Assembly (NCBI GenBank): GCA_033763455.1
Contig: JANRKO010000080.1
Coordinates: forward strand, 1-64,000
Length of the DNA stretch: 64,000 nt
Direction of reading: 5' to 3'
From: Polyangiaceae bacterium
GTDB lineage: Bacteria; Myxococcota_A; Polyangia; Polyangiales; Polyangiaceae
Of the stretch, positions 25,406 to 51,361 are shown one piece after another. Position 1 is the stretch's first letter, and each line of letters begins with the position of its first letter. The position numbers and the translations under genes are program-made. The notes beneath the pieces were generated by a model that saw nothing but the letters and a program-made list of their open reading frames with translations, ran no database searches and was not told the origin of the DNA.

Positions 25406-25409
25406 GTTT

Positions 25410-31170: not shown

Positions 31171-33630
31171 TCAATGCTGAACTTTCGGTTTCCGTAAAGG
31201 AACAATGTCGGCGCCGGGTTCGGTGGAAATCTTGGGGTGGGCACGGAGCAGGCTGATAATGAGGCTCGTTCCCCAACCTTCTTCGCTACGCAGTGTGAGC
31301 CGGCCGTGGCTATTTTCGACAGCCGCTGCCAACGCCCCGAGGCTCGCAAGCCCTGCGGGGGGATCTGCTGGCGCTGTCAACGTGCGTTTCAGCGCAGCTG
31401 TCGGCACGTCCAATCGTAGATCAAGGAGTGAGACTTCCACCCTCAGGTGTCGCTCACGGATAGTGACGACGGGTCCCGTGCCCGAGCCCTCCCGCGCTGC
31501 CGCTTCGACTAAAAATTGCTCCAATGTTGCGCTGAGTTCCGGGCGATGACCGATGACTTGAGCAACGACACGGGGGGCTTGAAGGCGGATATTCCCCTGG
31601 TTACGTCGCGCCACGGTATCTACAACGTCCGTTATTACCTGCGCCATGGAAAACACGGTGAGCACGTCCCGTCGCTCCGGAAATGCTTGAACATTGTCGC
31701 CTTCCTCACTCACCTGATGGCGCTGCACTTCCACCACAGACCCCACGAAGCCGGCTCCGCCTTGTTCCTCGCTCTCCATCGCCTTGACTGAAATCACGAG
31801 CGCTCGCTGGCTTCCGTCACGTCCGAGTGTTGGCAGTTCCACTAGCCAGCCCTTATCGGCCACTTCACTGAGGCTTGGTGCTGGCAGGCTGAGGCGGGAG
31901 CTTACCGCGCCGAGTAGGCGCGTGAGGGGCAATGTGCGCACAGGGATCATGCCGCTAGGTCCGGCCTCCGGAAGCTCGAGCTCACAATACCTCAACAGAT
32001 CGAGCACTGCGCGGCCCGCGATGCGAATGTCGCCAAAGGCGTCAGCATACATTAGCCCCACCGGTGCCGACCGCAAAACGCTGCTGAAGAGCTGAAGTTC
32101 GTCCAGTGCGGTGCGGGCCTGTGTGATCAAATTGTGAGAGTCCGCTCCAGCTTCGCCGACTAAAAGCCCGGCGGTACGCCGCCAATCATCCTGACGCCCG
32201 CGCTCAATTCGGCGTTTTCTTATTAGCTCGGCAACATCGTTACCAAGCCGCAACGACAATTCTGGCTTTTTCGCGTAGGAATCTGCGGCGTTCTTGCCGA
32301 TCAAGAAGATGTAGCCTTCGAGTTCGCCCGCTGCCTCCAGGGGGATAAACAGCATCGGCACTCCCGCCATCACCACGTAGTCGTGCAGCACCTTGATGGC
32401 GCGCGCGCCAGTCTCGTCGACGTACGGAGTGCGGCGAACGTCTCTGCGTCGTTCGCGAATAATGGACTCGTTGAGGTCGCCGTGTGGCCACACTTTCAAG
32501 CGCCAACTAAACGCAGGGAGCTCCGCAACAAGGACTGCGTCCGCCGGGTGAGATTGCGCGATTCTGTCAGCTAGGCGCTCAAAGAATTCAGCGTCTGGGA
32601 GTGCGTGTGTTCCTGGTGTGCCCAAGGTTGCGCCTGCGAGCAGCTTCTCGGCGCTGCTTCTCGCACGGCGTTGAGCGAACACGCGGGGAGCGTGAAGCGT
32701 GGCAGTGTGCACAAGCAACGCGAGGCCAAGGCTTGGAAGTGGCCACAAAACGCCAATTCCGCGGGCTCCAAAGAGCGAGGCCGAAACGAGTAGCAAGTAG
32801 ATCGCGAGAGGAGGCAGGTGCCCGAGCGAACGCCACCGCCTATGCCGCCCGAGGAACAGGAGAAAAGCGCCCGTTCCAACTGCTACGAGGGCAACTTGCC
32901 AAAACACCGCCGGCTCGCGTGGCCCTTCCTCGATGGCACCCGCCATGGAAGCTGCCACTCGGGCACTCAAGGGGCCAAGTGCGTTCACGTGATTTCCGTC
33001 GATGAGTGCGTCGTCCAGTGAAAGCAGCGCGATCCGCCGCTTCAAGACGTCCGCTTCGACCCGACCCTCGCGTAGATCGGTCAACGAGATGCGTGGCACC
33101 GATTCCCAAGGGCGCGGGGAAACCCAGCGTGTTCGGGCGAACCCTAAGGGTTTCAGGCGATGGAAATCTGCAGGGGGCGCGTAGAATCCCAATATCCTTC
33201 CGTCGCTGTCACGCAGCAGCGTTGGAGCGGGCAGCACTGCTAGGTTCGACACCACGGCGTCGCCTTGCGGTCCGCACAGTTTGTCGAGTGGAGGCAACAG
33301 TAGGCTGAAGCGCGCCCCCCCAACGTGTGCGGCTTTCACTACCGAAGTAAAACAGTCGGAGCGGTGCGCCTCGCTTGCGTCGACGGATACCACGACAACG
33401 CTCGTTGGCGGTTCGCGCTTGGCCGTCAGCTCCAAAAGGGTGCGGTGTAGCCAGTGGTCAACGAACCCGAGCGGAGAACTGACCGCGACGAGTACGAGCA
33501 AGGTTGCTGCTAGAGCATCGAGTGAGACGTAGTCCCAGAACGGGTGCTGTCGTCGAACCGCGGACGCCATAGGGCGCGGCAGCAAGAACTTGCGCGGCAC
33601 CTTTCCCGGCTTCGAACGGAACCATTTCAT
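31171..33630 (-). CDS. CHASE2-domain membrane sensor with a degenerate histidine-kinase-like C-terminus
   Basis: TM, then PPTSVVVVSVD...LKRRIALL CHASE2-like region, three TMs, GAF/PAS-like segments, HATPase-like tail (ENSHGRLTLRSEEGWGTSLIISL) without a recognisable H-box or N-box. Confidence 0.65.
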   Translation of the reverse strand: MKWFRSKPGKVPRKFLLPRPMASAVRRQHPFWDYVSLDALAATLLVLVAVSSPLGFVDHWLHRTLLELTAKREPPTSVVVVSVDASEAHRSDCFTSVVKAAHVGGARFSLLLPPLDKLCGPQGDAVVSNLAVLPAPTLLRDSDGRILGFYAPPADFHRLKPLGFARTRWVSPRPWESVPRISLTDLREGRVEADVLKRRIALLSLDDALIDGNHVNALGPLSARVAASMAGAIEEGPREPAVFWQVALVAVGTGAFLLFLGRHRRWRSLGHLPPLAIYLLLVSASLFGARGIGVLWPLPSLGLALLVHTATLHAPRVFAQRRARSSAEKLLAGATLGTPGTHALPDAEFFERLADRIAQSHPADAVLVAELPAFSWRLKVWPHGDLNESIIRERRRDVRRTPYVDETGARAIKVLHDYVVMAGVPMLFIPLEAAGELEGYIFLIGKNAADSYAKKPELSLRLGNDVAELIRKRRIERGRQDDWRRTAGLLVGEAGADSHNLITQARTALDELQLFSSVLRSAPVGLMYADAFGDIRIAGRAVLDLLRYCELELPEAGPSGMIPVRTLPLTRLLGAVSSRLSLPAPSLSEVADKGWLVELPTLGRDGSQRALVISVKAMESEEQGGAGFVGSVVEVQRHQVSEEGDNVQAFPERRDVLTVFSMAQVITDVVDTVARRNQGNIRLQAPRVVAQVIGHRPELSATLEQFLVEAAAREGSGTGPVVTIRERHLRVEVSLLDLRLDVPTAALKRTLTAPADPPAGLASLGALAAAVENSHGRLTLRSEEGWGTSLIISLLRAHPKISTEPGADIVPLRKPKVQH

Positions 33631-33701
33631 AGGGGGCTACCAGGACTCCTACGGCCGGGTTCGGCTATTTTTTGGGGGTCTTCTGCCGATTGAGCTCCGC
33701 A

Positions 33702-33717
33702 TGGCCGGTTTGTCGCT
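33702..33717 (+). promoter_or_regulatory. Candidate sigma54 promoter for the cap-like operon
   Basis: TGGCCGGTTTGTCGCT with GG-N10-GC spacing and the same TCGCT -12 element as the sulfur-operon promoter; weak match. Confidence 0.3.
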
Positions 33718-33779
33718 TCGCTAAGTGACGGGCAAAGCAGGGACGGCGCCGCCTGGGGGGCGAAACCGCACTTATCTCA

Positions 33780-36700
33780 GTGCGCGGATCTGCCGAAGTG
33801 GAGGACACGCTTGTGTTGGAATTTCTCGGGATAGGCACCTCCCACGCCTGGAACGTATTTCCGGACAACGGTTTGGACCGGAGCTTGCACGCGCCGATCT
33901 TGATCGGGCTTTTGTTCCTCACGTTTTTCCGAGAAACGTTCGGCTGGAGCTACGCGGGATTGGTCGTGCCCGGCTACCTCGCCGTGGTGGCGCTTTCGGC
34001 ACCTGTTACCGGTGCTCTCATCGTTGGAGAAGCGATCTTGGCTTACTGGTTGGCGTACGCCGTTGGGCGTCTCCTACCGCGGTTGGGGCTGTGGTCGCCA
34101 CTATTTGGCAGAGAGCGATTCCTGCTGATCATACTGGCCTCTTTGGTGGTGCGGCTTGCGCTGGAAGGATACTGGATCAGTTGGTTGGTAAATCGCTACG
34201 GACTCACCCATTCTCGCGAGCTCCATAGCATTGGGCTGGTGCTCGTGGCCCTTTTGGCCAACGCGTTCTGGAATTCAGGGTTCGTTGCAGTCTTACCGCG
34301 ACTCGGCTTGGTCGTAGGGGCTACGTACTTGGTTGTTGGCCAGGTATTGCTTGCCCATACAAACTTCACGCTAGCGCGCTTTCAAGTAGCCAATGAGAGC
34401 GTGTCCCTCGCTTTTCTGGAGACGCCCCACGCCCACATTATTTTGGCGCTCGGTGCCATCATGGCAGCGCGGGATAACGTCCGCTACGGGTGGGATTATA
34501 ACGGAATTCTAGTGCCCGCCCTCCTGGCGGTAGCCTGGTATTCGCCCACCAAGCTCCTAACAACCGTCTTGGAGGCGCTGCTGGTGTTGTGGCTCTCCAA
34601 GCTCGTCACGCAATATGGGCCGCTTGCGCGCGTGCTGATGGTTGGCTCGCGGCGTATGTTGGTTGCCTATTCCGTTGGGTTCTTTACCAAATGGGTGGTT
34701 GGTTTTGCGATGATGCGGCTTCTGCCGGGCGTGCAACTATTGGATTTTTTCGGGTTCGGATACCTATTGCCGTCGCTCTTGGCGATCAAAATGTGGAACA
34801 CGGGGCGCATTCCCACCGTTATTATGCCGACGCTTCAGGTTTCGCTGGGTGCCTTCATCGCGGGAAACGCCCTGGCTTATAGCCTTCGTTTGGCTGAAAA
34901 CGCGTTGGCTTCTGCGCAGCCCGGATCGACGATTGAAACATCACGCTCCGTTGCCTGGGATCTTCTACGCGCGGACAGTGCACCGGAGCCGCGCCCACAG
35001 GCCCTGCGAGTGTTTGAGAGATCACCCGCTCAACAGGTGCTGCAAGTTATCGAGGCGATTCCTGGGGCGAGCGCAGATCTTGGAGGCATCGAATGGGAGC
35101 CGAGCATTCGAGTCGCTAAAACCCCAGATAAATGGTGGGTTTTGGGCCCGCGCTCGCTCGACCCGGACAACGATTGGGTATGCCCTCGTGTCGCGCTATC
35201 GTTCGATAGCAAGCAGAACTGGCTCGTAGTGGCCGAAACTTCCGAGGCCGCTTCTGCTAACATCGTTGTGGCATCTGAGCTTGCGAAGAGGATCTCTGCC
35301 AGAGCTGTAGTGGTGCGTTCCACACAGCCGGCGTTGGCACCCTTTGACGATGCCTTCATTGACGAGCTAAACCAACGTCTCAATATCGAGTTGGTGATCA
35401 TTGTGCGCCAGAGTGCGGGGCCCGCTCGGCTGGAGCTTTCCGGCAAGTTGCCTGAGGGGCTCGATGCGGCGTGGATGCGGCGGACTGTGGGCGGGCAGTT
35501 GGCGCTTACCTGGCGTGCGCCGAGCGTGGGGAAAAGTCCCACGGACAACGCCCCGATCCTGTTGATTGACCGAGCAACCGCCGAGACAACTGCGGCGGCT
35601 TTGCTTTCCGCGCCGGAACCGGAACTTTGGGGCCCGAGCTTGCGCGAGGTGTTGGACGTGAAAATGCCAGCACTCACCTCCGTACTTCCCGGCCACCACA
35701 GGAATCCAACCATCGAAGAGCTTCGCATTTTCTCCAAAGGTGTTGGTCGAACCTTCCTCCGCTTCGCTAGAGGTGAGGCAGCCCCGACGGCCTATAGTCG
35801 AGCGATAGCTGCAGAGCTCGGGCTTAGAACGGCCAAGGTCAGCGATCCGACTGGAGACATGTGGGCGTTGTTCTCCCCACCGGGCGAAGAACGAGAGGGG
35901 CATGCTACGTGGATAGTTCGAGGTCCAGGGAAGGTTGAAGATCGAGGCCGGCGGCCGGTATTGCTCGAAGTTCCGAGTCCGCTGTGGGAACGGGGAACGC
36001 TTAGCGCCGCGCTGTCGTTCTCTCGCGCGCTTGGTTCACAATCGATGCTCCTATCCGGTTCCTTTCCCACGGCCACCCCAGATGGCAGTGCGGACGTGCG
36101 TAGTGTTTTCGGCAAGCGTTCTTACTTTCAACATATTCACGAGCTTTGGATACAACAGCAGGGCTTGGTTCTGAGCGTTCAAGGCATTGCACCTTCTCGT
36201 ATCGCGAATGCTGACGTGATCGTGACGTTGCCGCAGGACTTGAGCGACTTCGGTCGCGCACCCAGCTGGGCACATCCGCTACTGCAACTTCTAAAAGGCA
36301 GTGGGCTGGAGGTAGCGCCGGTCGATGGCTCCCTTGAAAGAGCGCCATTCGAAGCCACGGCTCAACCGACGATGGCCTACGCCCGGCGCTTCGGCGATCA
36401 ACAAATGCTGATTGCCTGGCTCACCGCCGAGACGCGACTACGCTTTGTCGCTGCGGACGAACAAGACGCCTTGACGCAGGCTAGGTTGCTGCGAATGGGC
36501 AAGCCCGTGGCCGCTCTCTCTGTGGCGGAGCGGGCCCGGTTCCTGGCTGTGTGTAAGGCCGGCGTTAGCGGCTGCCCGAGCCTTGGCTCCGAATGTTCTC
36601 TCGACACTCAAGCCCTCGCGATTGGAAGTTATGTGCGTGAACGCAATCCGTACTGGTTACGGAGTGTGCTTTCAGCAGAGCGAGGCTGCTTTGCCGAAGT

Positions 36701-36881
36701 TGCGCAGGATGCTGCGGGGGGAACGCTCTTTGCGCTTTTGGCTAACGCCAAAGAGGTTCGTTTGGTTCCACTGCGTACTGGGAGTCTGATGACGCTCGGG
36801 CGCCCCCTGCGGGACCCACCCAATCTTGAGCAGGCGGTTGCGCTAGGGCTCTCGGCCATCGCCATTGGGGCTGTGCGATGA
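33780..36881 (+). CDS. capC: Poly-gamma-glutamate synthesis CapC/PgsC tandem-domain fusion with a large C-terminal extramembrane region (start uncertain)
   Basis: AGLVVPGYLA, LFGRERF and SIGLVLVALLAN match CapC motifs; second repeat NGILVPALLA, VGSRRM, GFGYLLPSLLA; about 660 extra aa. Confidence 0.85.
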   Translation: MRGSAEVEDTLVLEFLGIGTSHAWNVFPDNGLDRSLHAPILIGLLFLTFFRETFGWSYAGLVVPGYLAVVALSAPVTGALIVGEAILAYWLAYAVGRLLPRLGLWSPLFGRERFLLIILASLVVRLALEGYWISWLVNRYGLTHSRELHSIGLVLVALLANAFWNSGFVAVLPRLGLVVGATYLVVGQVLLAHTNFTLARFQVANESVSLAFLETPHAHIILALGAIMAARDNVRYGWDYNGILVPALLAVAWYSPTKLLTTVLEALLVLWLSKLVTQYGPLARVLMVGSRRMLVAYSVGFFTKWVVGFAMMRLLPGVQLLDFFGFGYLLPSLLAIKMWNTGRIPTVIMPTLQVSLGAFIAGNALAYSLRLAENALASAQPGSTIETSRSVAWDLLRADSAPEPRPQALRVFERSPAQQVLQVIEAIPGASADLGGIEWEPSIRVAKTPDKWWVLGPRSLDPDNDWVCPRVALSFDSKQNWLVVAETSEAASANIVVASELAKRISARAVVVRSTQPALAPFDDAFIDELNQRLNIELVIIVRQSAGPARLELSGKLPEGLDAAWMRRTVGGQLALTWRAPSVGKSPTDNAPILLIDRATAETTAAALLSAPEPELWGPSLREVLDVKMPALTSVLPGHHRNPTIEELRIFSKGVGRTFLRFARGEAAPTAYSRAIAAELGLRTAKVSDPTGDMWALFSPPGEEREGHATWIVRGPGKVEDRGRRPVLLEVPSPLWERGTLSAALSFSRALGSQSMLLSGSFPTATPDGSADVRSVFGKRSYFQHIHELWIQQQGLVLSVQGIAPSRIANADVIVTLPQDLSDFGRAPSWAHPLLQLLKGSGLEVAPVDGSLERAPFEATAQPTMAYARRFGDQQMLIAWLTAETRLRFVAADEQDALTQARLLRMGKPVAALSVAERARFLAVCKAGVSGCPSLGSECSLDTQALAIGSYVRERNPYWLRSVLSAERGCFAEVAQDAAGGTLFALLANAKEVRLVPLRTGSLMTLGRPLRDPPNLEQAVALGLSAIAIGAVR

Positions 36882-39307
36882 TTCGCTGGGTTGGTGTGAC
36901 ATTGGTCGTCTTGTTAACTGCGCTGGTGCTGTACAAAGTGCGAGAGCACGAGGGGGATACCGAGCTCGTAGATGAGATCCTCGCTTACGAATTGGTTCCA
37001 GGTCGCGCCTTGGAGGTTCCCCTCTATTCCGACATGACCGAAGTCAACTTTACCAGTTGGATGCTCTTGCCGGATTCTTATAGCCGCGATCCCTCGCAAA
37101 GATTCGAGTATGGCGTGCAGCTCTCCCTGATCGATGCCGCAGGGCATATGCTGAGCCAGCAGGTGATTCGTTTGGTGAGTCGGGTCAGCGGAGATCCAGC
37201 TGAACCAGCTGAGCTTGGTAGATTCTCCGCTCGGCTCGTGGATGGTTCCGAACGGGTCACCGACTCACGCACCAAGGTCGTGGATACGAGTGCACTGAAC
37301 GGGCGTGGGCGTCTCCGCCTCACCACTGTGCCAGGTGAACCGGATACAGTGCTGGTGCGCTTGGCTTACCCCGAGGAAAGAAGCGAGCTCATGCAGCGGA
37401 TCGCCGCCCGAACGTTAGCCCTCGGCAAGCGTCGCCGGCTGGTTGAGCAGAGCTTCAGTCTTGGCTTTTCCGATCTGCCAGAAGAAGCACGTTTGCGCGC
37501 AGTCACGGCCTGGGGCAGACGCCTTACTGCGGCTGGGCGCGCGGATACTGATTACGTGACGAGGCGGCTCCTGCTGGGATCGCTTCGCTCCGATACTGCG
37601 CCATACCAAGCAGAGCAGGTGGGTGTTCCGCTGGGCCCACTCCACAACGCCACATTTAATCTCAAGCATAGTGTCACGTTGCGTATTGAGGCGGAGCCCG
37701 GTCGTCAATTTTCCGTACGCGAGGGGGACGCGAAGCCAAGAGAGGTGTTAGTTGGCGACAGTGGGCGAGTCGAACTGAAGGCTTCTGGTGAGGTTCCGCG
37801 TACACTCAATATCGAATCCAAGAGCAACTTGAACGCGCAGTTCAGCCTACCCGCTAGCGATTCATCGGCCCTCATTGGCGATCTTGAGCCGATGTTGAAA
37901 GGTGGCCGTCTCTGGCTATCTCCGGACGTGCGGAACGCTCGCTTCTATCGGCTGGATCCTGCTGAACCTGTCCAATTCTCGATTGCGCCTCTGCAAGCCG
38001 TTCTGAGGTTGGTGGTGCGTGGGCTCGTTTTTGACTCCACGGCGCCTAAGCCTGTGTGGGTAAGAGTATTGTGGGATGGCCAGGCTCCAGACCAAGTTCC
38101 CGAGCTACAAGCCGAGCTCCCAGTCAGTCCCACTGATGACGCAGATGGAAGTCACGTGACGGCTGAGAAGAAGGTGTTGCTGCGCCTTCCGGCCCATGTG
38201 CGAAAGGTACGCGTCGTAGGCGACGGCAGTACCGTTGTGGCGGCTTTCAGCGAAGAACCGGGAGTTGCCGAGAGTCGCATTCACCCGGCGTATGATGTGC
38301 CTCTGGCGGCCAACCAGGTGTGGCGCGCTGCCCCCTACGATATCCGGCGCTTCGCCGGCCTGCGCCCTTCCAACGAAGAAGCACTTGTTGGGGCGGCTAG
38401 AGTTGCGCGCGTAGGGTCTCAGGTTCGCATCGAATCCTTGGCGGAAGGTGTAGGCGAGCGCATTGCAGAACGCGTCCTCATTCCTCTAGCGGCACCGATG
38501 GTGCGTTCCCTTTACACACCCACTTGGGCGGCACGCGGGCGACCTTCAATGGAGGCGATCTGGAGCGTGCAGCAGGGAGAACCAACAAGCGAGCAAGTCT
38601 ACTGGGTTCCTCAGTCGGGGGAGAGAGCCGCTCGGATGCCGTTGATCTACAGGGCGGATCCACGAAGCCTTGGCGGAACACTTCGGGTCACGAGTGCTCA
38701 GAAGTCGATCGCTGAGCGCCCGCTCCTTGCTCTCGATGGTGAGCTCACGTTACGGGGCCTGCCGGCGAGCCTTCCGCTCGGTGTCTCGGGCTTGGGTGCG
38801 GGCGGCATACTTCTAATCGGTGCCGCCCCGGACGCAGGTGGCAAAGTTATAGTGCGAAGCCAGAAGGTCTTCGAGCTGACCTCCCAGCGGCCCTTGCTTT
38901 TCTCCTTTCAGGTGAAGGAAGGGGAGCTGCTGTCGGCCTGGCTCAACCTAACCTCTTTGAACAAGCGCCAAAGCTACCGAGTAAAGTACGCGATCGACCG
39001 GGGCAAGCCTCGACCCGCGCCGCAGCGCTTCTTTCGCAGGATGAGCCAATGGGAGGGTGAGCTTTTGGGTTCGACGGGAAGCAAGCTCGGCCTGATCTGG
39101 GAGGCTCCGCGAGAAGGCGAAGTTAACGCGCTGTTCTTGGATCACATCGGGCTGGCGCGCATTGAGTTGGGTGATGACTTGGCGCCCGGTGTGCATACTT
39201 TGGAGCTTCGGCTAATCGGACCGGAGCCCTTGTGGGTACGGGCCGTGCTTGCGGGGCGAGTGGCCGCCCCATCAGAAGATTTGCCTGCGCTTGCTGAGGA
39301 GGAATGA
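36878..39307 (+). CDS. Hypothetical N-terminally membrane-anchored, beta-rich protein of the cap-like operon
   Basis: Single N-terminal hydrophobic helix; ATGA overlaps with both neighbours; 809-aa ORF. Confidence 0.75.
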   Translation: MIRWVGVTLVVLLTALVLYKVREHEGDTELVDEILAYELVPGRALEVPLYSDMTEVNFTSWMLLPDSYSRDPSQRFEYGVQLSLIDAAGHMLSQQVIRLVSRVSGDPAEPAELGRFSARLVDGSERVTDSRTKVVDTSALNGRGRLRLTTVPGEPDTVLVRLAYPEERSELMQRIAARTLALGKRRRLVEQSFSLGFSDLPEEARLRAVTAWGRRLTAAGRADTDYVTRRLLLGSLRSDTAPYQAEQVGVPLGPLHNATFNLKHSVTLRIEAEPGRQFSVREGDAKPREVLVGDSGRVELKASGEVPRTLNIESKSNLNAQFSLPASDSSALIGDLEPMLKGGRLWLSPDVRNARFYRLDPAEPVQFSIAPLQAVLRLVVRGLVFDSTAPKPVWVRVLWDGQAPDQVPELQAELPVSPTDDADGSHVTAEKKVLLRLPAHVRKVRVVGDGSTVVAAFSEEPGVAESRIHPAYDVPLAANQVWRAAPYDIRRFAGLRPSNEEALVGAARVARVGSQVRIESLAEGVGERIAERVLIPLAAPMVRSLYTPTWAARGRPSMEAIWSVQQGEPTSEQVYWVPQSGERAARMPLIYRADPRSLGGTLRVTSAQKSIAERPLLALDGELTLRGLPASLPLGVSGLGAGGILLIGAAPDAGGKVIVRSQKVFELTSQRPLLFSFQVKEGELLSAWLNLTSLNKRQSYRVKYAIDRGKPRPAPQRFFRRMSQWEGELLGSTGSKLGLIWEAPREGEVNALFLDHIGLARIELGDDLAPGVHTLELRLIGPEPLWVRAVLAGRVAAPSEDLPALAEEE

Positions 39308-40326
39308 TGAATGCTTGGAAGCTTACTGCTGTGTCCTTAGCCGTCGTTCTCACCGGCTGTCGCGGTTGCGAGCCGGACAAACGTGACGAATCCACCGAGA
39401 TGACTCCGCCGCCCCCAGCTTCGTCAGCTCCGCCTGTGCCGTCTGCCACTTTAGGCGAGGAAAAGCCGCAAGCCGGCCCCCTTCCGCTACTGGAGCATTT
39501 GCGCTTCAGCCGCCGCAGCGAAGGCGTGCAGTTCGTGAATCCAACGCCTGAGGAAGGTCGAGCCTTTGTCGGTTGGGTAACGGCGGTGAGCCGAGCTGCT
39601 TGGTCGGATCGACTACCCGGCGCGGCCCCACCGGATGGCTTCGAAGGTGTGTTGACCCAGCTTGGAACGCTCTGGCTGCTGCGGGAGAAATCAGACCAGC
39701 GGCGTGGTGCGGGCGCGTACGTACTTCGGGCAAGCGCGGGGCGTCCGCTCATCCTGCAGGCGCCCCACACCTTCTTCGATGCAGGCACTCTGCCCATTGC
39801 TACGCGACTCTTCGAACGGCTGCAAGCCAAAGCCCTGTTGATCAACACCGTGCATCGATCGGGTGGCCAAGAAGGCGAAGGCGAGGAGGAAAAAGAGAAA
39901 GCCCGGAGCGGTAAGTCAGAAGCTGATGTCGCTCACAACCGTGAGAGCTTCTATTCGTTGGTTCATGAATCGTTGCTCACGGTAGATCCCACGCTGTTGG
40001 TTATTCAAATTCATGGTTTTCGAGATGCCAAAGTGCCCGGTGTCGATCTTGTGGTGAGCGCAGCAGACACGCAGGCTGATATCAGACCGATGGGGAGAAT
40101 CATGAAAGGCCTGCTGGGTGCGAACCGAGTTCGACTCTATCCCGAAGAAATTAAGCTTCTCGGTGGAACCACGAACGCTCAGGCGTTTATCAGCCGCAAA
40201 AAGCGAACCGCCTTCATTCACCTTGAGCTGTCCGCAAAGCTCCGAAAAGCGCTCGAAAAGGACGACATTTTCTTCGCAAAATTCCTCCGAGCATTTTCTC
40301 AGGCAATCCCGGAGGGCCGTCGTTGA
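39304..40326 (+). CDS. Lipoprotein with a Zn-dependent amidohydrolase fold (gamma-PGA hydrolase/N-formylglutamate amidohydrolase-like)
   Basis: Lipobox VLTGC; Pro-rich linker; QAPHTFFD, IQIHGF and FIHLELS give the His/Asp/His metal ligands and catalytic Glu arrangement of this fold. Confidence 0.65.
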   Translation: MMNAWKLTAVSLAVVLTGCRGCEPDKRDESTEMTPPPPASSAPPVPSATLGEEKPQAGPLPLLEHLRFSRRSEGVQFVNPTPEEGRAFVGWVTAVSRAAWSDRLPGAAPPDGFEGVLTQLGTLWLLREKSDQRRGAGAYVLRASAGRPLILQAPHTFFDAGTLPIATRLFERLQAKALLINTVHRSGGQEGEGEEEKEKARSGKSEADVAHNRESFYSLVHESLLTVDPTLLVIQIHGFRDAKVPGVDLVVSAADTQADIRPMGRIMKGLLGANRVRLYPEEIKLLGGTTNAQAFISRKKRTAFIHLELSAKLRKALEKDDIFFAKFLRAFSQAIPEGRR

Positions 40327-43300: not shown

Positions 43301-45152
43301 TGAGTGGGTAAACGTATCCGTTCAAGGGGCTGCGGGGGTTCGTTGGCTCGAAAACGAAGGCCGTGGCGATGGCAACACCACTCTTGGGGAACGCACGCGC
43401 AGAGCGCTGACGGACGCCCCAGCGGAAGCAACCAGCAGCGGGAAAGATCCCATTGAGATTAGCCTTTTGGGGATGAAATCGAGAAGTTTGAGAGTGCATT
43501 CCTTGTGCCACGCCAGCGATGGTCAAAACGAATACTGCAGTTTCCGCTTTGAAATAGATCATCGCCCTGTCGTTTGCGGCGCATCGCCCGTAGCCTCAAG
43601 TGCGCGGGACTTCGTTGCTCTCCCTACGGAGTGTGAACTGACGGTTCCGGAGGGGGCAGCACGCTTAAGCGTGTTTCCGCCAGCGGACCGCGACGTCTTC
43701 GGGTGGATAAACGCGCAGGAGAAGACCGTTACGGGTTTTGCACCCTTGGTTCGAGCCACTCGGTGGACGGAGATCGACGTTCCTCGACCCATGGAGTTCC
43801 AGGTGGTTGGGCCAACGGTACTCAAGATCCAGACACGTGGTTTGATCCCAGGACCGCCAAGCTTTCGTGTGGACATAGTAGAGCCCGGTGGGCAGAGCTC
43901 AGAAGCCATGGAGCCAGTGTTGTCCTCCGCGGTAGATCCGGTGTCTGTATTGAGGGATGTGGGCTCGCAGGTGACCGTGGCTGGGCGACAATACGTAACG
44001 CTCCCACTCAAGGGACAATATCGCGTTCGTCTGTCCACACCGAGCGGGCGTATTTTGGCAAAGGTCGAAGCGGCTTTTGCCAAAGGCTTTCCGCGTGCGC
44101 GGACCGAGGATCCGAAGGAGGATGCTGCACCTGTCGTGCAGAGTGGCGCGGCTCCAGGGCCTGCAGTTTGGCCGGCGATTGGGCTGGATCCGAAGCCAGG
44201 AGCACTCACGTTAACAGCATTTTCGAAGTACATCGATGACCGGCGCTTGCTCGACGAGGACGCTGTTTTACGCACGAATTACGCCGAGTTGGGTGTCGGC
44301 GCGGGGCGTGAAGTCATCGACGGAACGTTGTTGGGGGCAGTCTCCCTAGCTCGACGTTTTCGCGCCGGGAGCGACAGCACCCACGCACGTTCGAGTTGGT
44401 CACTCTCTTTGGGCAATGGCTTACCCGGTGCTTGGCTCGACACTTCCTTTACCGTCCAGCGATTGCAAGAATGGCGTTGGGGTGCGGCGCTGGGCACAGG
44501 CGTATCTTACGGCGTCCCAGTTACCGAGGACTTTAAACTGATACCCGAACTAGCGCTCGCGTTGCGGAGAGTCGATGCAGGCGCCAGAGGTAACGGTGAA
44601 GTTGATTCGGATGTCTACTCCCCTTACGGCAGAACGCGGCCCGCGACGTACGACGCCATCCTGAGCGCGTTGCACCAGCCCTGGGTCGACGCGAAAATGA
44701 GTTACCGAGCTCGCGCACGGCTTTTGCCCTCATTCCAGGGGCTCGACCGCGTCGATGGCCGAGCGCGCTTCAACGCTCTCGTTTTGCGTGATTACTTTCC
44801 TTGGCTAGGTGCGGACTTGGAACTCAGCTACCGTCCCGTTTCACCATTGCGAACGCTGAGCTTTTGGCGTGCCGAGGTTAGCCCTGGGGCGTCGTTCTGG
44901 TGTTGGACGCATGCCTCGGGTCGCTTCGTACTGAGCGGATTGTTGGCCTATTCTGAAGACTTCCCGCGCAGTAGGGGTCGCGGTCGAGAGTTGTCGGCTC
45001 AACTCGGACTTCGCTATGACATGACTTGGCTTCGCGGTCTCTCGGATTACAGCGCCGACGAGCGGCCTTTTCAAGACAGGCTTGAGGAAGGTTCAGCGCC
45101 ACCTCGTCGGGGAGTTGCTCCGCGGGATCCGAACTGGAGCGAGCCGCCGTGA
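40323..45152 (+). CDS. Large exported protein with TPR-like helices and a probable C-terminal outer-membrane beta-barrel
   Basis: Signal peptide ending ANA-W; helical TPR-like stretches; from about 44205, amphipathic strands (YAELGVGAG, WLDTSFT, LGADLELSY, LSAQLGLRY); overlaps both neighbours (start TTG 40323 or ATG 40329). Confidence 0.65.
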   Translation: MTMRLNARVARHLFVSLVFIVGWLTSQRANAWDALAWGVPQQVRVFRWEDARMPAMLLRSVDPLVDAELLDQELLLSPVKPGQEVRIFGDPVEVGLGSGSRDLPDVITWQAPGAWLRRVAAGVHELRVPTYESARWVVVRSPYPKTRVRLEVALPEVSNILWYRAEENVWRMLEGGPVPTLLGPLASHQSEIRFLDAARRAFPEGVGREFLQSHWLEFAWQERGLGRPYFVSAQVGPAPAPVPLLQQASAPWVPQPDGSWVTSLTEGHTAAVHSDEAEVVTLFVRAHAVGQIRIVVRQGAGLVAVMKQDIARNAEDPARLTPATRFRLPMAPGTPISIQVQRGTAELSISGYRARPSITDGTPIRQRTELLRLGMRGKGASAAERVARVLSKLALCRCPEAVEEGQELLTITTGKVRALVLFELIYQGIGLVDVNVLLPQFWKATAGLEETDRLAFRRQLLQRLTEVDAEPLQVEHLEDVAIRSGFVETEALSEDAFATAALAEMIAVPRDGARPWFAAAAEVRAAERPERADLVELGRRSWFRTAPWSWIDPSGSETISRVRNVYGARPEELCESQGDRGPRWLRLSHTPEPLAIRADSGTHARVLLRSEAEVPAADTSVQVGATQIHVHAGIGLYSSMGLAPGTHEIHVQSGPDILAQLPLAQPVPCGRLREIERWVPIRQSVHFAITRGEVGTVGRLLLDLDQANPKFGEVEVRVQNEVHRAWARAPATGAVEFPLPKDVEAFEVRSGEPVLVRALQRLHKMPKAQAPRALAKLDVPLNEPELLAQVRRSTRALGTSKSAKERATLRLARAKALQDLGYLRLAAVDRVRANQPESDTDRSDATAEWLLLPPGSPPVVALNLLAKIPPLPLPIPSKTLELAFRQRQLGAPPVDVISTLGASAQYSSAVDALLLAVLAEQLGLLEVSASAYERIGHALRSGHALAHSAELRADFAEKEQSLDQTMTAYITARQAEASLVPAGDVLARMDRAIEWVNVSVQGAAGVRWLENEGRGDGNTTLGERTRRALTDAPAEATSSGKDPIEISLLGMKSRSLRVHSLCHASDGQNEYCSFRFEIDHRPVVCGASPVASSARDFVALPTECELTVPEGAARLSVFPPADRDVFGWINAQEKTVTGFAPLVRATRWTEIDVPRPMEFQVVGPTVLKIQTRGLIPGPPSFRVDIVEPGGQSSEAMEPVLSSAVDPVSVLRDVGSQVTVAGRQYVTLPLKGQYRVRLSTPSGRILAKVEAAFAKGFPRARTEDPKEDAAPVVQSGAAPGPAVWPAIGLDPKPGALTLTAFSKYIDDRRLLDEDAVLRTNYAELGVGAGREVIDGTLLGAVSLARRFRAGSDSTHARSSWSLSLGNGLPGAWLDTSFTVQRLQEWRWGAALGTGVSYGVPVTEDFKLIPELALALRRVDAGARGNGEVDSDVYSPYGRTRPATYDAILSALHQPWVDAKMSYRARARLLPSFQGLDRVDGRARFNALVLRDYFPWLGADLELSYRPVSPLRTLSFWRAEVSPGASFWCWTHASGRFVLSGLLAYSEDFPRSRGRGRELSAQLGLRYDMTWLRGLSDYSADERPFQDRLEEGSAPPRRGVAPRDPNWSEPP

Positions 45153-48100
45153 GCCTGGACGCGTTAGCTGAAGATCTGGCTCGGCGCCTCACGCCGCTAT
45201 TGCCACTATTAGATGCTAGAGTGCGCCAGCCGGCGCTGTTGGCTGTCACCGGGCGCGCCGTGATGCTCAACCATGGCCACGTGGAAACCTCATCTAGGCT
45301 GCTCGTGGGTCTGGTTCGAGCCGCTGCCGAAGCTTGTTCTGCTTTGGCGCAACATAGGAAGCAACGAGAACAAATCATCCAAACGTACCATGGCAAGGAG
45401 AGCCCAGAGGAAAGGCGCCAGGTCATTACCGACGCGCTTCCGGCACTCGCATCCTCGCCCGCCCAGTTGGCCGCCGATCTAGCAGCTACGCGGCGAAACT
45501 TAGGTATCGAAGCCCTGATGGAGCGCCTACAAGAGCGCCTCTCCGATGACGTGGACCAGGTGGAAGTCGCCTACAAGGCAGCGCGCGCCGTCGTAGCGCT
45601 CATCTCAGCCGAGGCGCAGAGTCTTGCCGGACATGAAGTCGAGGCCCTTTTGGCCCTCGCATTCAAACACGTGTGCGCGAACCACCACGATGCCATATCG
45701 ATTGTGGCTTTGGAGTTTACCGAAGCACTTCTCGGTACTTTGCGAGCGAACGACCGCTTACTCGTGCTCACGCCGGATCGTTACACAGCTTTTCGCAAGC
45801 TCGCCTTAGAGCCGAACCTCAATCCATGGGTCCGCGTGGCAGCTCTGGGCGCATGTATTGTGGCGGCTCCGAAGCATGGCGTAGCGCTTCTCGAACAGGT
45901 ACTCGATGACCGAACGGGTAGGGACGCCCAGATCCTGCGACATCGGGCGGTAAAACGCCTACTCGAGGTGGAACCAGAGAGGTCGCGGCTACTCGCCCTC
46001 ATTCGGCAGATCCGAAGCGATCCGAGCGAACACGTGCGCCAAGGCCTCTGCTGGTTTCTGGCGCGAACGAACGATGGCGCACCAAATCTCGGAGCGCTGT
46101 GTCTGAGTGATCCGAGCCCGAGCGTACGTGGCTACGCGTTGCGCGAACTTTCTCGAAGTGCGGCGGCAAGCGGACAGGGCTTGGATGTCCTCTTGGCGAC
46201 GGTTCTTGAACTACTGAAGAAGGCGGCAACCGGCACGGACGCCCCCATCGTTCTGCGCGTCTTACTGGAAGAAATTACCCGGCACGCGACGGCATCGCCA
46301 CGGGCCTTTCCGCTGACGCCTTTCGTGAAGCCTCTAGAGGCGCTACTTGCGGCGACGTCAGTCGCGAGCAGCCTCAAGGCCAACGTCGCTGAGCTGCTCC
46401 TCAAGCTTGAGATATACTCGGATGCCGAGTTGTTAGATCTCTGTCGCGAGTTTGAGGCCCATCTTGAGGAGCTTGAGGAAGGGCAGAGCCGGATCGTGGA
46501 TTTGCCGAGCCAGGCTTCCGAAGAGCAGGTGGAAAAGGCTCTTATGGTGGCCGGCAGGCATGATTTGTCTATTTCCGCTCGCTGGGCAGGCTCCGGAAGT
46601 CTCGTCATTATGCGCGGTGAGCCAAGAGGCTGGCGCCTTTGGCGGACGCTTTTCGAAGTCAGAACTCCGGCACCCGATAAACGCCAGGGGTATGCTCACT
46701 CCAAAGCACGGGTTCGGTTTGGTACCATCTACATTGCTCCTCGCGGCTTGGCTGAGGTAACGCCCACGCGGGTTCCTGGTGAACGCCAATGGTACCCGGA
46801 CCTAGGCGGTTGGGGGGAATTTCTGCCGAGGGTCGATGACCTCCTGTTCGTTTCTGGCCTGAGCGCACGCGCACGGCGAATCGTCACCGCATTTGGGACG
46901 TTGGTGATCTCCCCTCCCGTAAGTTTCTACAGAAGGCTCAAGAACTACTTTCAGCTCACCTTCCATTACGAGCGCTGGAGCCAGCTGCGCGAACGATCTC
47001 TCCGAGCAAAGCAGCCGGATGAGCGGCTTCAGTTTTCTGAGCACGTTGCCTCGTTGGGGTACACTGTCCGGCTATCTAATACCGAAAGCGAAGCCTCTGG
47101 TGTAAAGTGCGATAGGCGCCCAGCTCACGCTGAGCATTACCTATCCTTGGCCCTGCCATTCTGGTTCGACGACTTGATCAACTCGGGGCTCTCGTCGTCC
47201 GGCAACAGTGCCTGGCATCTGGCGATTGTTATCTGGCTAGCATTTTGTGGAATGATCGTGCGTTCGGCATGGATTCGGCGAAATATCGAGCGGGCGCGGA
47301 GGCGCATACCCCTCAGGATCGGAGGTTGGGGTAGCCGAGGAAAGAGTGGCACCGAGCGGATCAAAGCCGCCCTGTTCCATGCCATGCGCTATGAAACAGT
47401 CGTAAAAACGACAGGCTGTGAGGCAATGTTCATTCATGCGCGGCGTGATCAGCCCGCGCGCGAGATGTTTGTCTACCGACCGTACGACAAGGCAACCATT
47501 TGGGAACAGCGCAATGTGCTTGAGACGGCTTCGCGCCTCAAGGCGCAGGTGTTCTTATGGGAGTGCATGGCCTTGCAACCTGTATTTGTGCGTCAGCTCA
47601 TGCTCGATTGGATGCAAGATAAGCTGGCTACGCTCACCAACGCCTATCCAGATCACGAAGACATCATGGGCCCCTCAGGGGAAGATGTAGCGCGGGTGAT
47701 TGCGAGCTTTATGCCCGAAAATGGCGTTGCCTTCACCGCGGAAGACCAAATGTTTCCGATCATTGCCGATTCGGCACGGCGCCGCCATACCGAGCTTCAC
47801 ACGGTGACCGACACGGATGCGCAACTCTTGCCTAAAGATCTGCTCGATCGCTTCCCCTATCAGGAGCACCCAAAGAACATCGCACTCGTTTTGGCGCTGG
47901 CTGCCCATCTCGGAGTTGAGCCTGATTGGGCCATGGTAAAGATGGCTGATTACGTTGTTCCGGATCTGGGGGTGTTGAAAACTTATCCGGAAATCGTCGT
48001 CAGAAATCGAAAGATGAAGTTCTCTAACGGCATGAGCGCCAACGAACGTGCGGGGTTTCTGTCCAACTGGCAGCGGCTTGGTTTTGATGTTTTGGACGCG

Positions 48101-49411
48101 GAAAATCAGCCTGAAATCGTCAGTGTGGCCGTTGTGAACAACCGAGCTGACCGGGTGCCGCGCTCACGGGTGTTCGCTGAGCTCCTGGTAAAAGATGCCG
48201 CGTGCGACGTCATTGTTCTTATCAATTCAAATTTGATCGCGATGCGACGGTTCCTTCTGGAGAATGTTGCGCAGGTAACCCTTGGCGTCGCGTTTCAGGC
48301 CACAGGAGGCCCTGCGGCCGTCGCCCAGGCAACCTCGGTATTAGACGAGCTTTGGCAGAGGTTCCGCATTCTGAATAAGCGTTCGGTGGTTCGACGCAAG
48401 TTGGAGCTTATTGTTCTCGCGAGCGGCCTCGACATTGCTCTCGTTGAAAAGCTCTGTGAAAAACTCGATGAAGTGTCGGTGCCCGAGATCGAGGGCCTCG
48501 TGCGTGCGGCGAGTCCGGCGGCTCCGCCAGGTTCGGAGGCGCTGGACCCAAGTGTTCCATCTTCGCTCCCAAGTGACGAAGACACGCTTCGTCACATCGT
48601 CCAAATGGTGGAGTCTTATCAGATCGCCGTGCAGGCGCGGCAGGCCGTTCTTTCGGCCGTTGAACAAGGTCAAGCTGGGCAAGCGCGACGAAAGCTGGAT
48701 GAGGCGCTTTTGAAGCTTCTAGAGCGGCGAATTTGCGTTCTCATGGACGTGCGCGCCAATGGCGATCAGGTAATCGACTTCATCGCCGACCAGGTGCCTC
48801 CCGGGCACCGTGCACATTTGCTTGGGTGCCAGAACATCAAGGGAACCGGGCTTGATTTCGTCTATCGCTGGATCTCTATGGAGCAGGTGTTTCGTACTCT
48901 GGAGGGCCTTCGGTCAGAGCCGGATCGGCGCGCGGACCACTTGCAGGCACTCATCGAACACACTGACTACGGTTACTTCGATGCGCGGGACGCCCACGCA
49001 CGGCTCTTAGAGTTGGCACACGACCCGGGGTTTGATGGCCTCCGGGCAGAGTTGAGCGTAGCGGAGCGGCACCTAGCCGGAGTTGTGGCTGCGCGCCTTG
49101 CCAAGCTCAAGGGGGGCTCGACAACAACACGGCTGAGCCAAGTACTCGGACACATCGAGCCCTGGTTCGACCACCTGGACTCCATCCATCGCACGCGGTT
49201 CGCTCAGCGCGTATTGCGCCAGCTTTGCGCACAGCAGATCGGGCAGGGGCGCGCGGCAGAACTTCTGCGAGAGGTCACGGCACGTGGGAAAGGCGGGTGG
49301 CTGTACGCGATGGCCAAAAGTAGGCTGCCTCGGCTCACCGCAAAAGGGGCCCCAAAAACAAGAGGGGCCCCAAAAGCAAAAGAGGCCCCGAAGAAGTCCG
49401 ACCGAGGTTAA
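45149..49411 (+). CDS. capB: Poly-gamma-glutamate synthase CapB/PgsB (Mur-ligase fold) fused to an N-terminal HEAT-repeat region
   Basis: RIPLRIGGWGSRGKS P-loop (47330), VKTTG, WECMALQP, TNAYPDHEDIMGP, NGMSANE, NNRADRVPRS and LGCQNIKG are collinear with CapB motifs; HEAT motifs DPSEHVRQG and DPSPSVRGYA. Confidence 0.88.
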   Translation: MSLDALAEDLARRLTPLLPLLDARVRQPALLAVTGRAVMLNHGHVETSSRLLVGLVRAAAEACSALAQHRKQREQIIQTYHGKESPEERRQVITDALPALASSPAQLAADLAATRRNLGIEALMERLQERLSDDVDQVEVAYKAARAVVALISAEAQSLAGHEVEALLALAFKHVCANHHDAISIVALEFTEALLGTLRANDRLLVLTPDRYTAFRKLALEPNLNPWVRVAALGACIVAAPKHGVALLEQVLDDRTGRDAQILRHRAVKRLLEVEPERSRLLALIRQIRSDPSEHVRQGLCWFLARTNDGAPNLGALCLSDPSPSVRGYALRELSRSAAASGQGLDVLLATVLELLKKAATGTDAPIVLRVLLEEITRHATASPRAFPLTPFVKPLEALLAATSVASSLKANVAELLLKLEIYSDAELLDLCREFEAHLEELEEGQSRIVDLPSQASEEQVEKALMVAGRHDLSISARWAGSGSLVIMRGEPRGWRLWRTLFEVRTPAPDKRQGYAHSKARVRFGTIYIAPRGLAEVTPTRVPGERQWYPDLGGWGEFLPRVDDLLFVSGLSARARRIVTAFGTLVISPPVSFYRRLKNYFQLTFHYERWSQLRERSLRAKQPDERLQFSEHVASLGYTVRLSNTESEASGVKCDRRPAHAEHYLSLALPFWFDDLINSGLSSSGNSAWHLAIVIWLAFCGMIVRSAWIRRNIERARRRIPLRIGGWGSRGKSGTERIKAALFHAMRYETVVKTTGCEAMFIHARRDQPAREMFVYRPYDKATIWEQRNVLETASRLKAQVFLWECMALQPVFVRQLMLDWMQDKLATLTNAYPDHEDIMGPSGEDVARVIASFMPENGVAFTAEDQMFPIIADSARRRHTELHTVTDTDAQLLPKDLLDRFPYQEHPKNIALVLALAAHLGVEPDWAMVKMADYVVPDLGVLKTYPEIVVRNRKMKFSNGMSANERAGFLSNWQRLGFDVLDAENQPEIVSVAVVNNRADRVPRSRVFAELLVKDAACDVIVLINSNLIAMRRFLLENVAQVTLGVAFQATGGPAAVAQATSVLDELWQRFRILNKRSVVRRKLELIVLASGLDIALVEKLCEKLDEVSVPEIEGLVRAASPAAPPGSEALDPSVPSSLPSDEDTLRHIVQMVESYQIAVQARQAVLSAVEQGQAGQARRKLDEALLKLLERRICVLMDVRANGDQVIDFIADQVPPGHRAHLLGCQNIKGTGLDFVYRWISMEQVFRTLEGLRSEPDRRADHLQALIEHTDYGYFDARDAHARLLELAHDPGFDGLRAELSVAERHLAGVVAARLAKLKGGSTTTRLSQVLGHIEPWFDHLDSIHRTRFAQRVLRQLCAQQIGQGRAAELLREVTARGKGGWLYAMAKSRLPRLTAKGAPKTRGAPKAKEAPKKSDRG
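49343..49396 (+). repeat. Imperfect 18-bp tandem repeat x3 at the capB 3' end (KGAPKT/RGAPKA/KEAPKK)
   Basis: aaaggggccccaaaaaca / agaggggccccaaaagca / aaagaggccccgaagaag. Confidence 0.75.
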
Positions 49412-50795: not shown

Positions 50796-50866
50796 GGCGT
50801 TGCACCTTTGAAGGAGGGGAATGTTCGCGGTCGCGCACTTCACACCTAGCGCGTTCTTCGGGCAAT

Positions 50867-51361
50867 TCAAAGCTTCCGCTGTGGGTAAGGAGCACCGGCC
50901 TTGTTGGCCCACGTCCATTTGCCGTCGAGCAGGAGCCCCTTTAGGTCGTCGTCGGGGTAGGTCGCTTCGTCGCCTGGTGAGCGATCCCCAATCTCCAGGT
51001 ACACCACTTCTTCGGTGCTGGTGTTAGCCAGACAGTGTGCGTTGCCGGTTCCTGCCTTAAAGCCAGCGCACATTCCTGGGCAAAGTTGGGTATCGCCTTC
51101 ATCTGTTCGCAAAGTGGGTTGCCCTTGCAGGATGTAGACGAATTCGTCCTGAGTCTTATGGGCGTGGCGCAGCGCGGAGACGGCTCCTGGCGCCAGCCGT
51201 GTTAGGTTTACTCCGAAGTTGGTCAGGCCAAAGATGCTGCCAAGTACGCGTTTCTCACGACCAATCATACGTGAGGCGAAGGGCTCAGGGTACACAGAAG
51301 GTGTGGTGCGGAGGGGCGCTTCGGCCGCCACTATGGCAGTGGGTAGTTTTGCGTCAGTCAT
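50867..51361 (-). CDS. Cupin-domain protein
   Basis: SVYPEPF, GLTNFGVNL, HAHKTQDEFVYILQG, GNAHCL, YLEIGDR motifs; AAGGA SD. Confidence 0.88.
   Translation of the reverse strand: MTDAKLPTAIVAAEAPLRTTPSVYPEPFASRMIGREKRVLGSIFGLTNFGVNLTRLAPGAVSALRHAHKTQDEFVYILQGQPTLRTDEGDTQLCPGMCAGFKAGTGNAHCLANTSTEEVVYLEIGDRSPGDEATYPDDDLKGLLLDGKWTWANKAGAPYPQRKL

Follow-up and report, generated by a model that had tools for sequence, protein, structure and literature searches.

How might a double-membraned bacterium make poly-gamma-glutamate (PGA) and bring it across both of its membranes? PGA is a polymer of capsules and biofilms that also serves as an industrial material. How it is made is, to our knowledge, understood almost nowhere but in Gram-positive Bacillus, in which the cytoplasmic membrane has nothing beyond it. 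The question is raised by five consecutive genes in a stretch of 64,000 nucleotides from a Polyangiaceae bacterium (GenBank assembly GCA_033763455.1, contig JANRKO010000080.1, positions 1 to 64,000 of the forward strand), hereafter called the window. We propose that these genes encode an envelope-spanning machine built around a polyamide synthase of the PgsB/PgsC type, whose product is most likely PGA or a close relative of it, and we give this reading a probability of roughly 0.55. The operon is a real, conserved and largely unannotated system; the export model that we build on it is plausible and unproven. It may be the first dedicated route for PGA out of a double-membraned cell.

CapB together with CapC was detected bioinformatically in many diderm phyla by a survey of capsules (PMC5542703), whose PGA model, in the sections considered here, needs only these two proteins and holds no outer-membrane component. 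A 2026 review of surface biogenesis (PMC13721041) presents PGA synthesis, in the part dealing with it, only via CapBCE. Given that model and that account, as far as these parts of the two sources go, the route of PGA through the periplasm and the outer membrane of diderms is an open question. The literature that we searched (by titles and abstract openings of the matches listed, most subscription journals lying outside it) contained no report of gamma-PGA in myxobacteria and none of an outer-membrane route for PGA. It gave nothing for "capsule biosynthesis protein CapB" together with Sorangium, and nothing relevant for poly-gamma-glutamate together with "synthase-dependent".

The five genes lie on the plus strand (33780-49411) and encode, in this order, a fusion of two CapC domains (33780-36881, 1033 amino acids), three large proteins that we call p809 (36878-39307), p340 (39304-40326) and p1609 (40323-45152) after their lengths in residues, and a fusion of 1420 amino acids that contains a CapB/PgsB-type ligase (45149-49411). 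They are joined by four start/stop overlaps of 4 nucleotides (ATGA, ATGA, TTGA and GTGA), the classic mark of translational coupling, and are a tightly packed, translationally coupled operon of Polyangia-class myxobacteria. A preliminary description of this DNA, made from the letters alone, had listed six open reading frames, five of them on one strand and overlapping or abutting; its coordinates were right, and all four junctions are overlaps.

Is this arrangement a system or an accident of one genome? We fetched 65 loci with 10-kb flanks through relatives of p340 and searched them by tblastn and iterated profile hidden Markov models (HMMs). The arrangement is far beyond chance, since 25 of the 65 repeat the five genes in the same order and on the same strand; 16 of these 25 also carry the gene of an 819-residue membrane protein that diverges from the operon in the window. 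Another 12 loci are cut by a contig end and are consistent with the five-gene order as far as they reach, and one (L017) has about 5 kb of extra DNA between p340 and p1609. Counted gene by gene over the 65 loci, the CapC fusion is present in 34, p809 in 38, p1609 in 36, the CapB fusion in 27 and the 819-residue protein in 24. Eight of the complete loci form a deeply diverged class, which we call class 2 (L029, L032, L034, L035, L038, L045, L046 and L051, from Labilithrix, Sandaracinaceae and other Polyangia). Their middle proteins are 16-22 % identical to those of the window, and gene order and sizes are kept. Over the 25 complete loci and the window, the distance matrices of all 10 protein pairs correlate with r between 0.93 and 0.97 (Mantel p 0.001), which shows shared history rather than interaction. 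The expectation that the middle genes are co-conserved with the capB and capC fusions is thus borne out by complete loci, cut loci and correlations alike.

The first step, synthesis, can be read from the two outer genes. The CapC fusion contains two complete Pfam PF14102 domains (cutoff 27 bits), one at residues 42-170 (33903-34289; 87.3 bits) and one at residues 224-347 (34449-34820; 81.6 bits). The two halves align with each other at 29 % identity (E 2e-08) and are followed by a C-terminal extension of about 630 residues. Against the PgsC model of NCBIfam, TIGR04011, the fusion scores 75.8 bits, and five of five orthologues score 52.2-81.5 bits, all under the equivalog cutoff of 96.45. The ligase domain of the CapB fusion (residues 694-1039; 47228-48265) matches the PgsB model TIGR04012 over positions 2-332 of 380, with 217.8 bits for a cutoff of 222.7. 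PgsB is the sole NCBIfam match of this protein (E 1.8e-64), as it is for 14 of 14 orthologues tested (184.9-219.7 bits), and the match always stops at model position 320-332 or thereabouts. Because the whole family of both fusions scores under the equivalog cutoffs, we regard it as a coherent sister subfamily of PgsB/PgsC. A hydrophobic helix (residues 691-709) stands directly before the ligase domain and is followed by seven Lys/Arg, as in stand-alone PgsB; the helix is found in 41 of 48 relatives. Right after it comes GSRGKSG, which we take to be a P-loop-like motif. The Mur-type amide ligase is set between an N-terminal HEAT-like domain (HEAT_2 at residues 283-369; 27.8 bits, cutoff 27.7) and an extra C-terminal domain. 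Neither synthase fusion matched any PDB sequence.

The identity of the CapB synthase is not new. Besides the window's own protein the CapB fusion has 47 database relatives, and several of them, from Polyangium and Sorangium, already bear the public names "capsule biosynthesis protein CapB" or "poly-gamma-glutamate synthase PgsB/CapB". The preliminary description had likewise seen an operon bounded by CapC-like and CapB-like genes, and had remarked that the Bacillus proteins are small and stand alone whereas these are fused. Both points are correct, the first gene having two CapC domains and the last a PgsB-type ligase within its 1420 residues. By homology, the Mur-type domain, held at the membrane by its helix, would polymerise glutamate with ATP on the cytoplasmic side, and the tandem CapC domains, two copies per chain, would serve in the membrane as its partner, letting the polymer out of the cytoplasm. 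A cytoplasmic ligase domain is what we infer from the positive-inside rule and from the PhoA data on Bacillus PgsB, in the part of PMC7490850 that reports them. Gamma-PGA is on these homologies the best inference for the product, not a certainty.

What happens to the chain next may involve p340. The AlphaFold2 model of this protein, built on 24 sequences, is confident, with a pLDDT of 82 and a pTM of 0.79. Its Foldseek matches in the PDB are 2odf and 2q7s, then 5onj (YndL/PghL with PGA), 3a9l (phage PghP) and 21dc (the PGA hydrolase of phage PM1), and then carboxypeptidases. The N-formylglutamate amidohydrolase type, 2odf and 2q7s, has the best E-values (2.3e-05 to 9.2e-05), with TM-scores of 0.36 by query and 0.44-0.48 by target. 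The three PGA hydrolases follow with TM-scores by target of 0.55 (5onj_A, E 9.2e-05), 0.55 (3a9l_A, E 1.3e-04) and 0.53 (21dc), at probability 1.0. In the viral library BFVD the PGA hydrolase of Bacillus phage Bobb ranks fifth (TM-score by target 0.54). The fold neighbours given for PghL in the consulted part of PMC6506827, namely PghP, then 2odf, 2q7s and carboxypeptidase A, are the same set. The fold leaves the specificity of p340 unfixed, because Zn carboxypeptidases and N-formylglutamate amidohydrolases score similarly.

The residues of p340 may point in the same direction as its fold. The signature H155 D159 R185 D208 H211 H237 H306 E308 is kept in 40 of 40 operon-linked copies and is intact in 21 of 23 copies that lie alone, away from the operon; H155, D159, H211, H237, H306 and E308 are invariant in the family. 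When the p340 profile is compared by hhalign with YoqZ of phage SPbeta, a single-sequence template, the statistic is weak (3.1 % probability, E 0.014) and 145 columns are collinear. In these columns the H and E of APHGGGIEGGT stand opposite H155 and D159, the H of LHITS opposite H211, the H of SIHGY opposite H237, and the E of IQLEIS opposite E308. PghL uses His41, Glu46 and His102 as Zn ligands and His77 and Glu165 in catalysis (PMC6506827, in the part describing its active site). Thus p340 shares with PghP, PghL and YoqZ a fold neighbourhood and perhaps also a collinear H...D/E...H...H...E order, and it has Asp159 where the YoqZ/PghL motif leads one to expect a Zn-ligand Glu. Those proteins belong to PF05908, of which YoqZ is a genuine member (245 bits, our positive control). 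Two of 24 p340 members match this family weakly (E<=1, best E 0.0036), and no other Pfam family is matched by more than one of them. Unlike the three, p340 further has an extra N-terminal subdomain, a variable insert and signals for export, and its gene stands in the chromosome of a diderm producer, not in a phage. It resembles the 2odf/2q7s enzymes, which act on N-acyl-glutamate amide bonds, in its best Foldseek E-values; those enzymes work on small molecules in the cytoplasm, while p340 is exported and shares its operon with a polymer synthase, and its profile found no match among PDB sequences. That p340 is a Zn-amidohydrolase-fold protein is supported by the structural model; that it is a gamma-glutamyl hydrolase is probable. 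It would trim, release or clear the polymer, much as BcsZ, PgaB, AlgL and PelA do in polysaccharide systems and PgdS in Bacillus.

As for its location, a hydrophobic N-terminus occurs in 78 of 108 p340 family members and a lipobox-like motif in 35 of 108, so that export is general in the family and lipidation is not. The "Zn-hydrolase lipoprotein" of the preliminary description therefore stands as a hydrolase at the level of the fold, and as a lipoprotein for the window's own copy, which has the lipobox LTG↓C19; family-wide lipidation does not hold. In two class 2 loci a further p340 paralogue, very divergent, stands immediately upstream of the CapC fusion (L032:3967-5220 and L038:3706-4914). 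The two copies form a long branch of their own (support 100) and do not align at the last catalytic pair (HDRDHH--).

A second copy of this hydrolase lies within the synthase. During profile iteration the CapC fusion and p340 recruited each other, and since iteration can drift we checked the relationship directly. Compared by BLASTP, the two proteins of the window align over residues 692-840 with E 9e-07, and hhalign of a stand-alone p340 alignment against 18 CapC-fusion tails gives 98.5 % probability (E 3.2e-15, 243 columns). An HMM made from stand-alone p340 proteins only scores just 10.2 bits on the CapC fusion of the window, so the signal comes mainly from the comparison of families. The paralogous domain covers residues 625-893 or so (35652-36458), and its catalytic residues are replaced: among 10 alignable orthologues the equivalent of His155 is kept in one, and that of Asp159 is Glu in nine. 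The tail of the CapC fusion thus carries a copy of the operon's own hydrolase which, judged by these replacements, is catalytically dead. Fusions to PhoA and GFP place the C-terminus of Bacillus PgsC in the periplasm, like PgsA, in the relevant part of PMC7490850, and on this precedent the tail would be periplasmic too. In B. subtilis pgsBC without pgsA still over-produces PGA (PMC6029982, in the part concerned), so that the lack of PgsA in this operon would be tolerable. We suggest by analogy that the tail could replace the missing PgsA as a chain-holding domain, the dead hydrolase copy holding or guiding the nascent chain. It shows no relationship to p809 by hhalign.

The second gene, p809, has no Pfam or NCBIfam match and no known relative in the Atlas, and belongs to a large orphan family, whose representative clusters number 873 at E<=0.001, falling to 708 at 1e-10 and to 335 at 1e-30. 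An N-terminal hydrophobic segment (residues 1-19), also found in 95 of 101 full-length relatives, suggests a beta-rich periplasmic protein anchored in the inner membrane. Among the best 150 p809 representatives, six join p809 to p340 in a natural fusion, and in four of these the p340 signature is intact. This is Rosetta-stone evidence that scaffold and hydrolase act together in one compartment, and membrane-anchored p809 would thus work with the exported enzyme. By hhalign, a beta module of p809 (about residues 535-694) recurs in p1609 at about residues 582-704 (76 %, E 2.3e-5) and again at about 1019-1187 (54 %, E 1.3e-4). From these alignments a module shared by the two proteins is probable. 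The C-terminal module of p809 (profile positions 245-790 or so) is itself found in tandem in 5 of the best 150 representatives. These giants (P0246, P0260, P0263, P0267 and P0312; 1651-2085 residues) carry it two to four times, three times in four of the five, and no Pfam domain was found in the three that were scanned (P0246, P0260 and P0263).

The last step, exit through the outer membrane, would fall to p1609, and it is by far the most conjectural. The protein has a signal-peptide-like N-terminus ending ANA↓WD, as in four of four relatives, with no transmembrane helix and no lipobox. Four of its cysteines recur, conserved, in 67-85 % of the orthologues. The chain alternates between beta-rich and helical regions: residues 780-990 seem alpha-helical, and residues 1020-1560 have beta periodicity. 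The last 280 residues or so (about 1291-1570; 44193-45032) contain about 16 amphipathic strand-like segments; the region before them has the same signal, which leaves barrel and sandwich undistinguished. In the Atlas, the named clusters that come nearest are those of TPR proteins and PgaA_barrel porins, with values of 0.79-0.81 (PgaA_barrel 0.79), under the threshold of 0.9. A pattern for the signal recognised by the beta-barrel assembly machinery was tried on p1609 and discarded, since the positive controls PgaA and BcsC gave 0 matches; it matched 3 of 27 orthologues. By analogy, secreted p1609 would span the periplasm and end in a putative outer-membrane barrel through which the polymer leaves. 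The name "TPR-like/beta-barrel" that the preliminary description gave to this protein is an interpretation rather than something seen in the letters.

Several results weigh against the reading of the operon as a PGA machine of the envelope, and they concern the linkage of its genes, its product and its exit step. Regarding linkage, 26 of the 65 loci hold a p340 homologue alone, away from any synthase and in unrelated neighbourhoods, and Sorangium has full-length relatives of the CapB fusion and of p1609 elsewhere in the genome. The association of p340 with the synthase is therefore not obligatory. The lone copies would favour the view that an ordinary capBC pair lies beside unrelated envelope genes and that there is no system at all. 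We consider this very improbable in view of the four 4-nt overlaps, the gene order repeated in 25 loci down to 16-22 % identity, the p809-p340 fusions and the p340 paralogue inside the CapC fusion. Besides, of the 23 lone copies that pass a length filter, 16 group in a single clade dominated by Sorangium and nested among Polyangiaceae genes that are linked to the operon, according to a quick maximum-likelihood tree whose branches have SH-aLRT support only. The same nesting rules out that lone p340 genes are a separate paralogue family, and the Sorangium pattern fits a relocation of p340 in one lineage. Within the Polyangiaceae part of this tree stands a lone betaproteobacterial homologue from Rhizobacter sp. 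Root1221 (NZ_LMDI01000045.1, L023:9578-10771), whose neighbours are ordinary (MarR, ABM monooxygenase, DUF1330 and DUF3616) and which could result from horizontal transfer.

Regarding the product, 15 of 15 CapB fusions and 6 of 6 CapC fusions tested lie below the NCBI equivalog cutoffs, and judged by these scores the product may differ from classical gamma-PGA. The window p340 matches no Pfam family, PF05908 included, even at E<=1, and its hhalign statistic with YoqZ (3.1 %, E 0.014) is weak. As the preliminary description had said, capA/pgsA, capD/ggt and a glutamate racemase are missing: the families of CapA/PgsA, gamma-glutamyltransferase (GGT) and glutamate racemase match none of the 35 other window reading frames of at least 90 residues, CapE being too small for this cutoff. 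The PgsA/CapA Pfam family is likewise absent from all 41 window reading frames of at least 90 residues and from 27 flanking reading frames of class 2 loci, and racemase and GGT/CapD were not found in those flanks either. The ligase might then make another amide product, such as another poly- or oligo-amino acid or glutamyl chains on a protein or cell-wall acceptor, with p340 as the matching amidase. The last 50 or so PgsB model positions that are never matched, and the large HEAT-like and C-terminal domains of the CapB fusion, to which we assign no role, would agree with such a product. So would the fold group of p340, which includes enzymes of other specificity, among them N-formylglutamate amidohydrolases and cell-wall amidases. 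Yet PgsB and PgsC are the only family matches of the two fusions, and strong ones (E 1.8e-64 and 5.9e-45). The nearest functional relatives of p340 include three PGA hydrolases with aligned catalytic motifs, and pgsBC alone is enough for PGA in Bacillus (PMC6029982, same part). We thus hold a different amide product to be distinctly unlikely.

Regarding the exit step, p1609 has no sequence homology to E. coli PgaA (hhalign 0.4 %) or BcsC (0.3 %), nor p809 to E. coli BcsB (0.2 %). No PDB sequence matches p1609, and no Pfam family, TPR models included, is found in more than one of 27 orthologues (E<=1). The net charge of the periplasmic components shows no basic bias suited to a polyanion. In one locus with full flanks, from a Polyangiaceae metagenome-assembled genome (MAG) (L018; JAXLYM010000007.1, 10001-15180), the other four genes are present and p1609 is not, the CapB fusion following p340 directly; here the proposed exporter has either been lost, as in a natural knockout, or moved elsewhere. 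Finally, E. coli expressing PgsBCAE has PGA in the supernatant without a dedicated exporter, by the account in the part of PMC7490850 used here. The synthase could hence make a PGA-like polymer while p1609 is no channel. The polymer would then stay in the periplasm or on the surface of cell or spore, or leave by a general exit, and p809 and p1609 would be a beta-rich scaffold or polymer-binding matrix. This is in keeping with the tail of about 45 residues after the last predicted strand of p1609, where PgaA instead ends on an aromatic residue, and with the soluble-type beta module that p809 and p1609 seem to share. But none of the 25 complete loci lacks p1609, which has diverged together with the synthase (r 0.93-0.97). 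Against this reading also count its signal peptide without lipobox or transmembrane helix, its strand-like C-terminal segments and its nearest named clusters, TPR proteins and PgaA barrels though below threshold. On balance we find a machine without a channel of its own unlikely, and we keep the envelope-spanning reading as the preferred one.

How does this operon compare with known systems? Like PgsBCA(E) and CapBCA(D)(E) of Bacillus, it joins in one operon a PgsB-type ligase of the Mur family, with a preceding hydrophobic helix, to a CapC/PgsC membrane partner. It also encodes a hydrolase at the locus, as B. subtilis does with PgdS (PMC5751247, in the part concerned). In contrast to Bacillus, CapC is duplicated in tandem and extended by about 630 residues, and CapB is embedded in a protein of 1420 residues between a HEAT-like N-domain and an extra C-domain. 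Both synthase parts score under the equivalog cutoffs, and PgsA/CapA, CapD and any detectable CapE are lacking. Finally, the genes run C...B and not B-C-A, with three large orphan envelope proteins encoded in between, in a diderm host.

For comparison we looked at the pga and bcs operons of E. coli. With PgaABCD, BcsABZC, Alg8/44/K/E/L and Pel the operon shares, by analogy, an inner-membrane synthase, an anchored periplasmic protein, a polymer-cleaving enzyme and a very large secreted protein, helical and beta-rich, all in one operon. It differs from them in that a polyamide would be made by an ATP-dependent ligase, not by a glycosyltransferase. The homologies to PgaA, BcsC and BcsB are absent, no TPR Pfam match recurs and no receptor domain for cyclic di-GMP (c-di-GMP) was seen. 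Hence the operon would work like the synthase-dependent polysaccharide systems without being a member of them, the likeness being a functional analogy only. Tentatively, as something possible rather than probable, one might see here a trans-envelope secretion machine of a new class, and the first whose dedicated cargo is a polyamide and not a polysaccharide. It would have converged with Pga, Bcs, Alg and Pel from unrelated parts: a ligase synthase with a dead-hydrolase chain holder, a scaffold with a live hydrolase, and p1609 ending in a new type of pore.

What is new here is the dead hydrolase copy in the CapC fusion, the p809-p340 fusions, and the position of both synthase fusions just under the PgsB and PgsC cutoffs. 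A pseudo-enzyme copy of a system's own hydrolase fused to its synthase is an unusual design element, and the operon holds four protein families without Pfam assignment, one of them with 873 representative clusters. It is also a concrete, conserved and genetically tractable candidate, being found in cultured Polyangium strains and having relatives in Sorangium. Should the export model fail, the operon would still predict the making of a gamma-PGA-like polymer by Polyangia.

Control of the operon might lie in the gene diverging from it (31171-33630, minus strand), which is found in 24 of the 65 loci, always divergent from the operon and always in the closer class. The hydrophobic segments of its product of 819 residues (39-57 and 242-312) suggest one transmembrane helix, a loop of about 180 residues, three transmembrane helices and about 500 cytoplasmic residues; Cys93 and Cys119, in the loop, are invariant in 13 of 13 sequences. 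The preliminary description had taken it for a CHASE2 sensor. The CHASE2 label is not supported, with 0 of 13 sequences (the window and 12 orthologues) matching at E<=1, and none of the 13 matches any other Pfam family at this threshold or has a recognisable output domain; the profile also finds nothing among PDB sequences at E<=1. Only the transmembrane pattern (one plus three) resembles that of CHASE2 proteins, and "sensor" is for this protein a description of topology only. A regulator limited to one subclass is our guess. At one class 2 locus only (L029:3309-4496), the gene immediately upstream of the operon, in the same orientation, encodes a receiver-EAL protein (a c-di-GMP phosphodiesterase), which hints at c-di-GMP control, as in polysaccharide systems.

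Between the divergent gene and the CapC fusion lie 149 bp (33631-33779), the presumed promoter region of both transcription units. The divergent region has no match to the sigma-70 consensus, and 33400-34000 has no Rfam match at E<=1. Terminator-like hairpins with a T-run lie at 33643-33666 (plus strand), just upstream of the start of the CapC fusion, and 33400-34000 holds three of them for 0.8 expected; they might be an attenuator or a protein-binding site.

The surroundings of the operon fit a myxobacterial genome, with Ser/Thr kinase, FHA-sigma54 activator and PSD/DUF1592 protein genes around it. GC content is even over the region (0.58-0.61), and the closest database relative of p340 outside the window's own cluster comes from a Polyangiaceae MAG (81 % identity). 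Relatives of p340 also turned up in Planctomycetota and Myxococcia. On the minus strand, a gene of the ADP-ribosylglycohydrolase family (49413-50918) converges with the CapB fusion, one base separating the two stop codons, and has no homologue in the related loci. Just downstream of the 819-residue protein gene lies the gene of a double-VWA protein (29059-31044, minus strand). Homologues stand beside the operon, at other positions, in 3 of the 65 loci (L010:19752-20519, L026:19885-20754 and L025:278-835), most flanks being too short to judge. Farther away, 4461-8645 (minus strand) encodes a protein of 1394 residues that combines DUF3857, a transglutaminase core and TPR repeats. The strongest strand-composition skew of the window (GC skew 0.174, AT skew -0.339) falls at 24001-26000, over TauE/sulfur-transport membrane genes.

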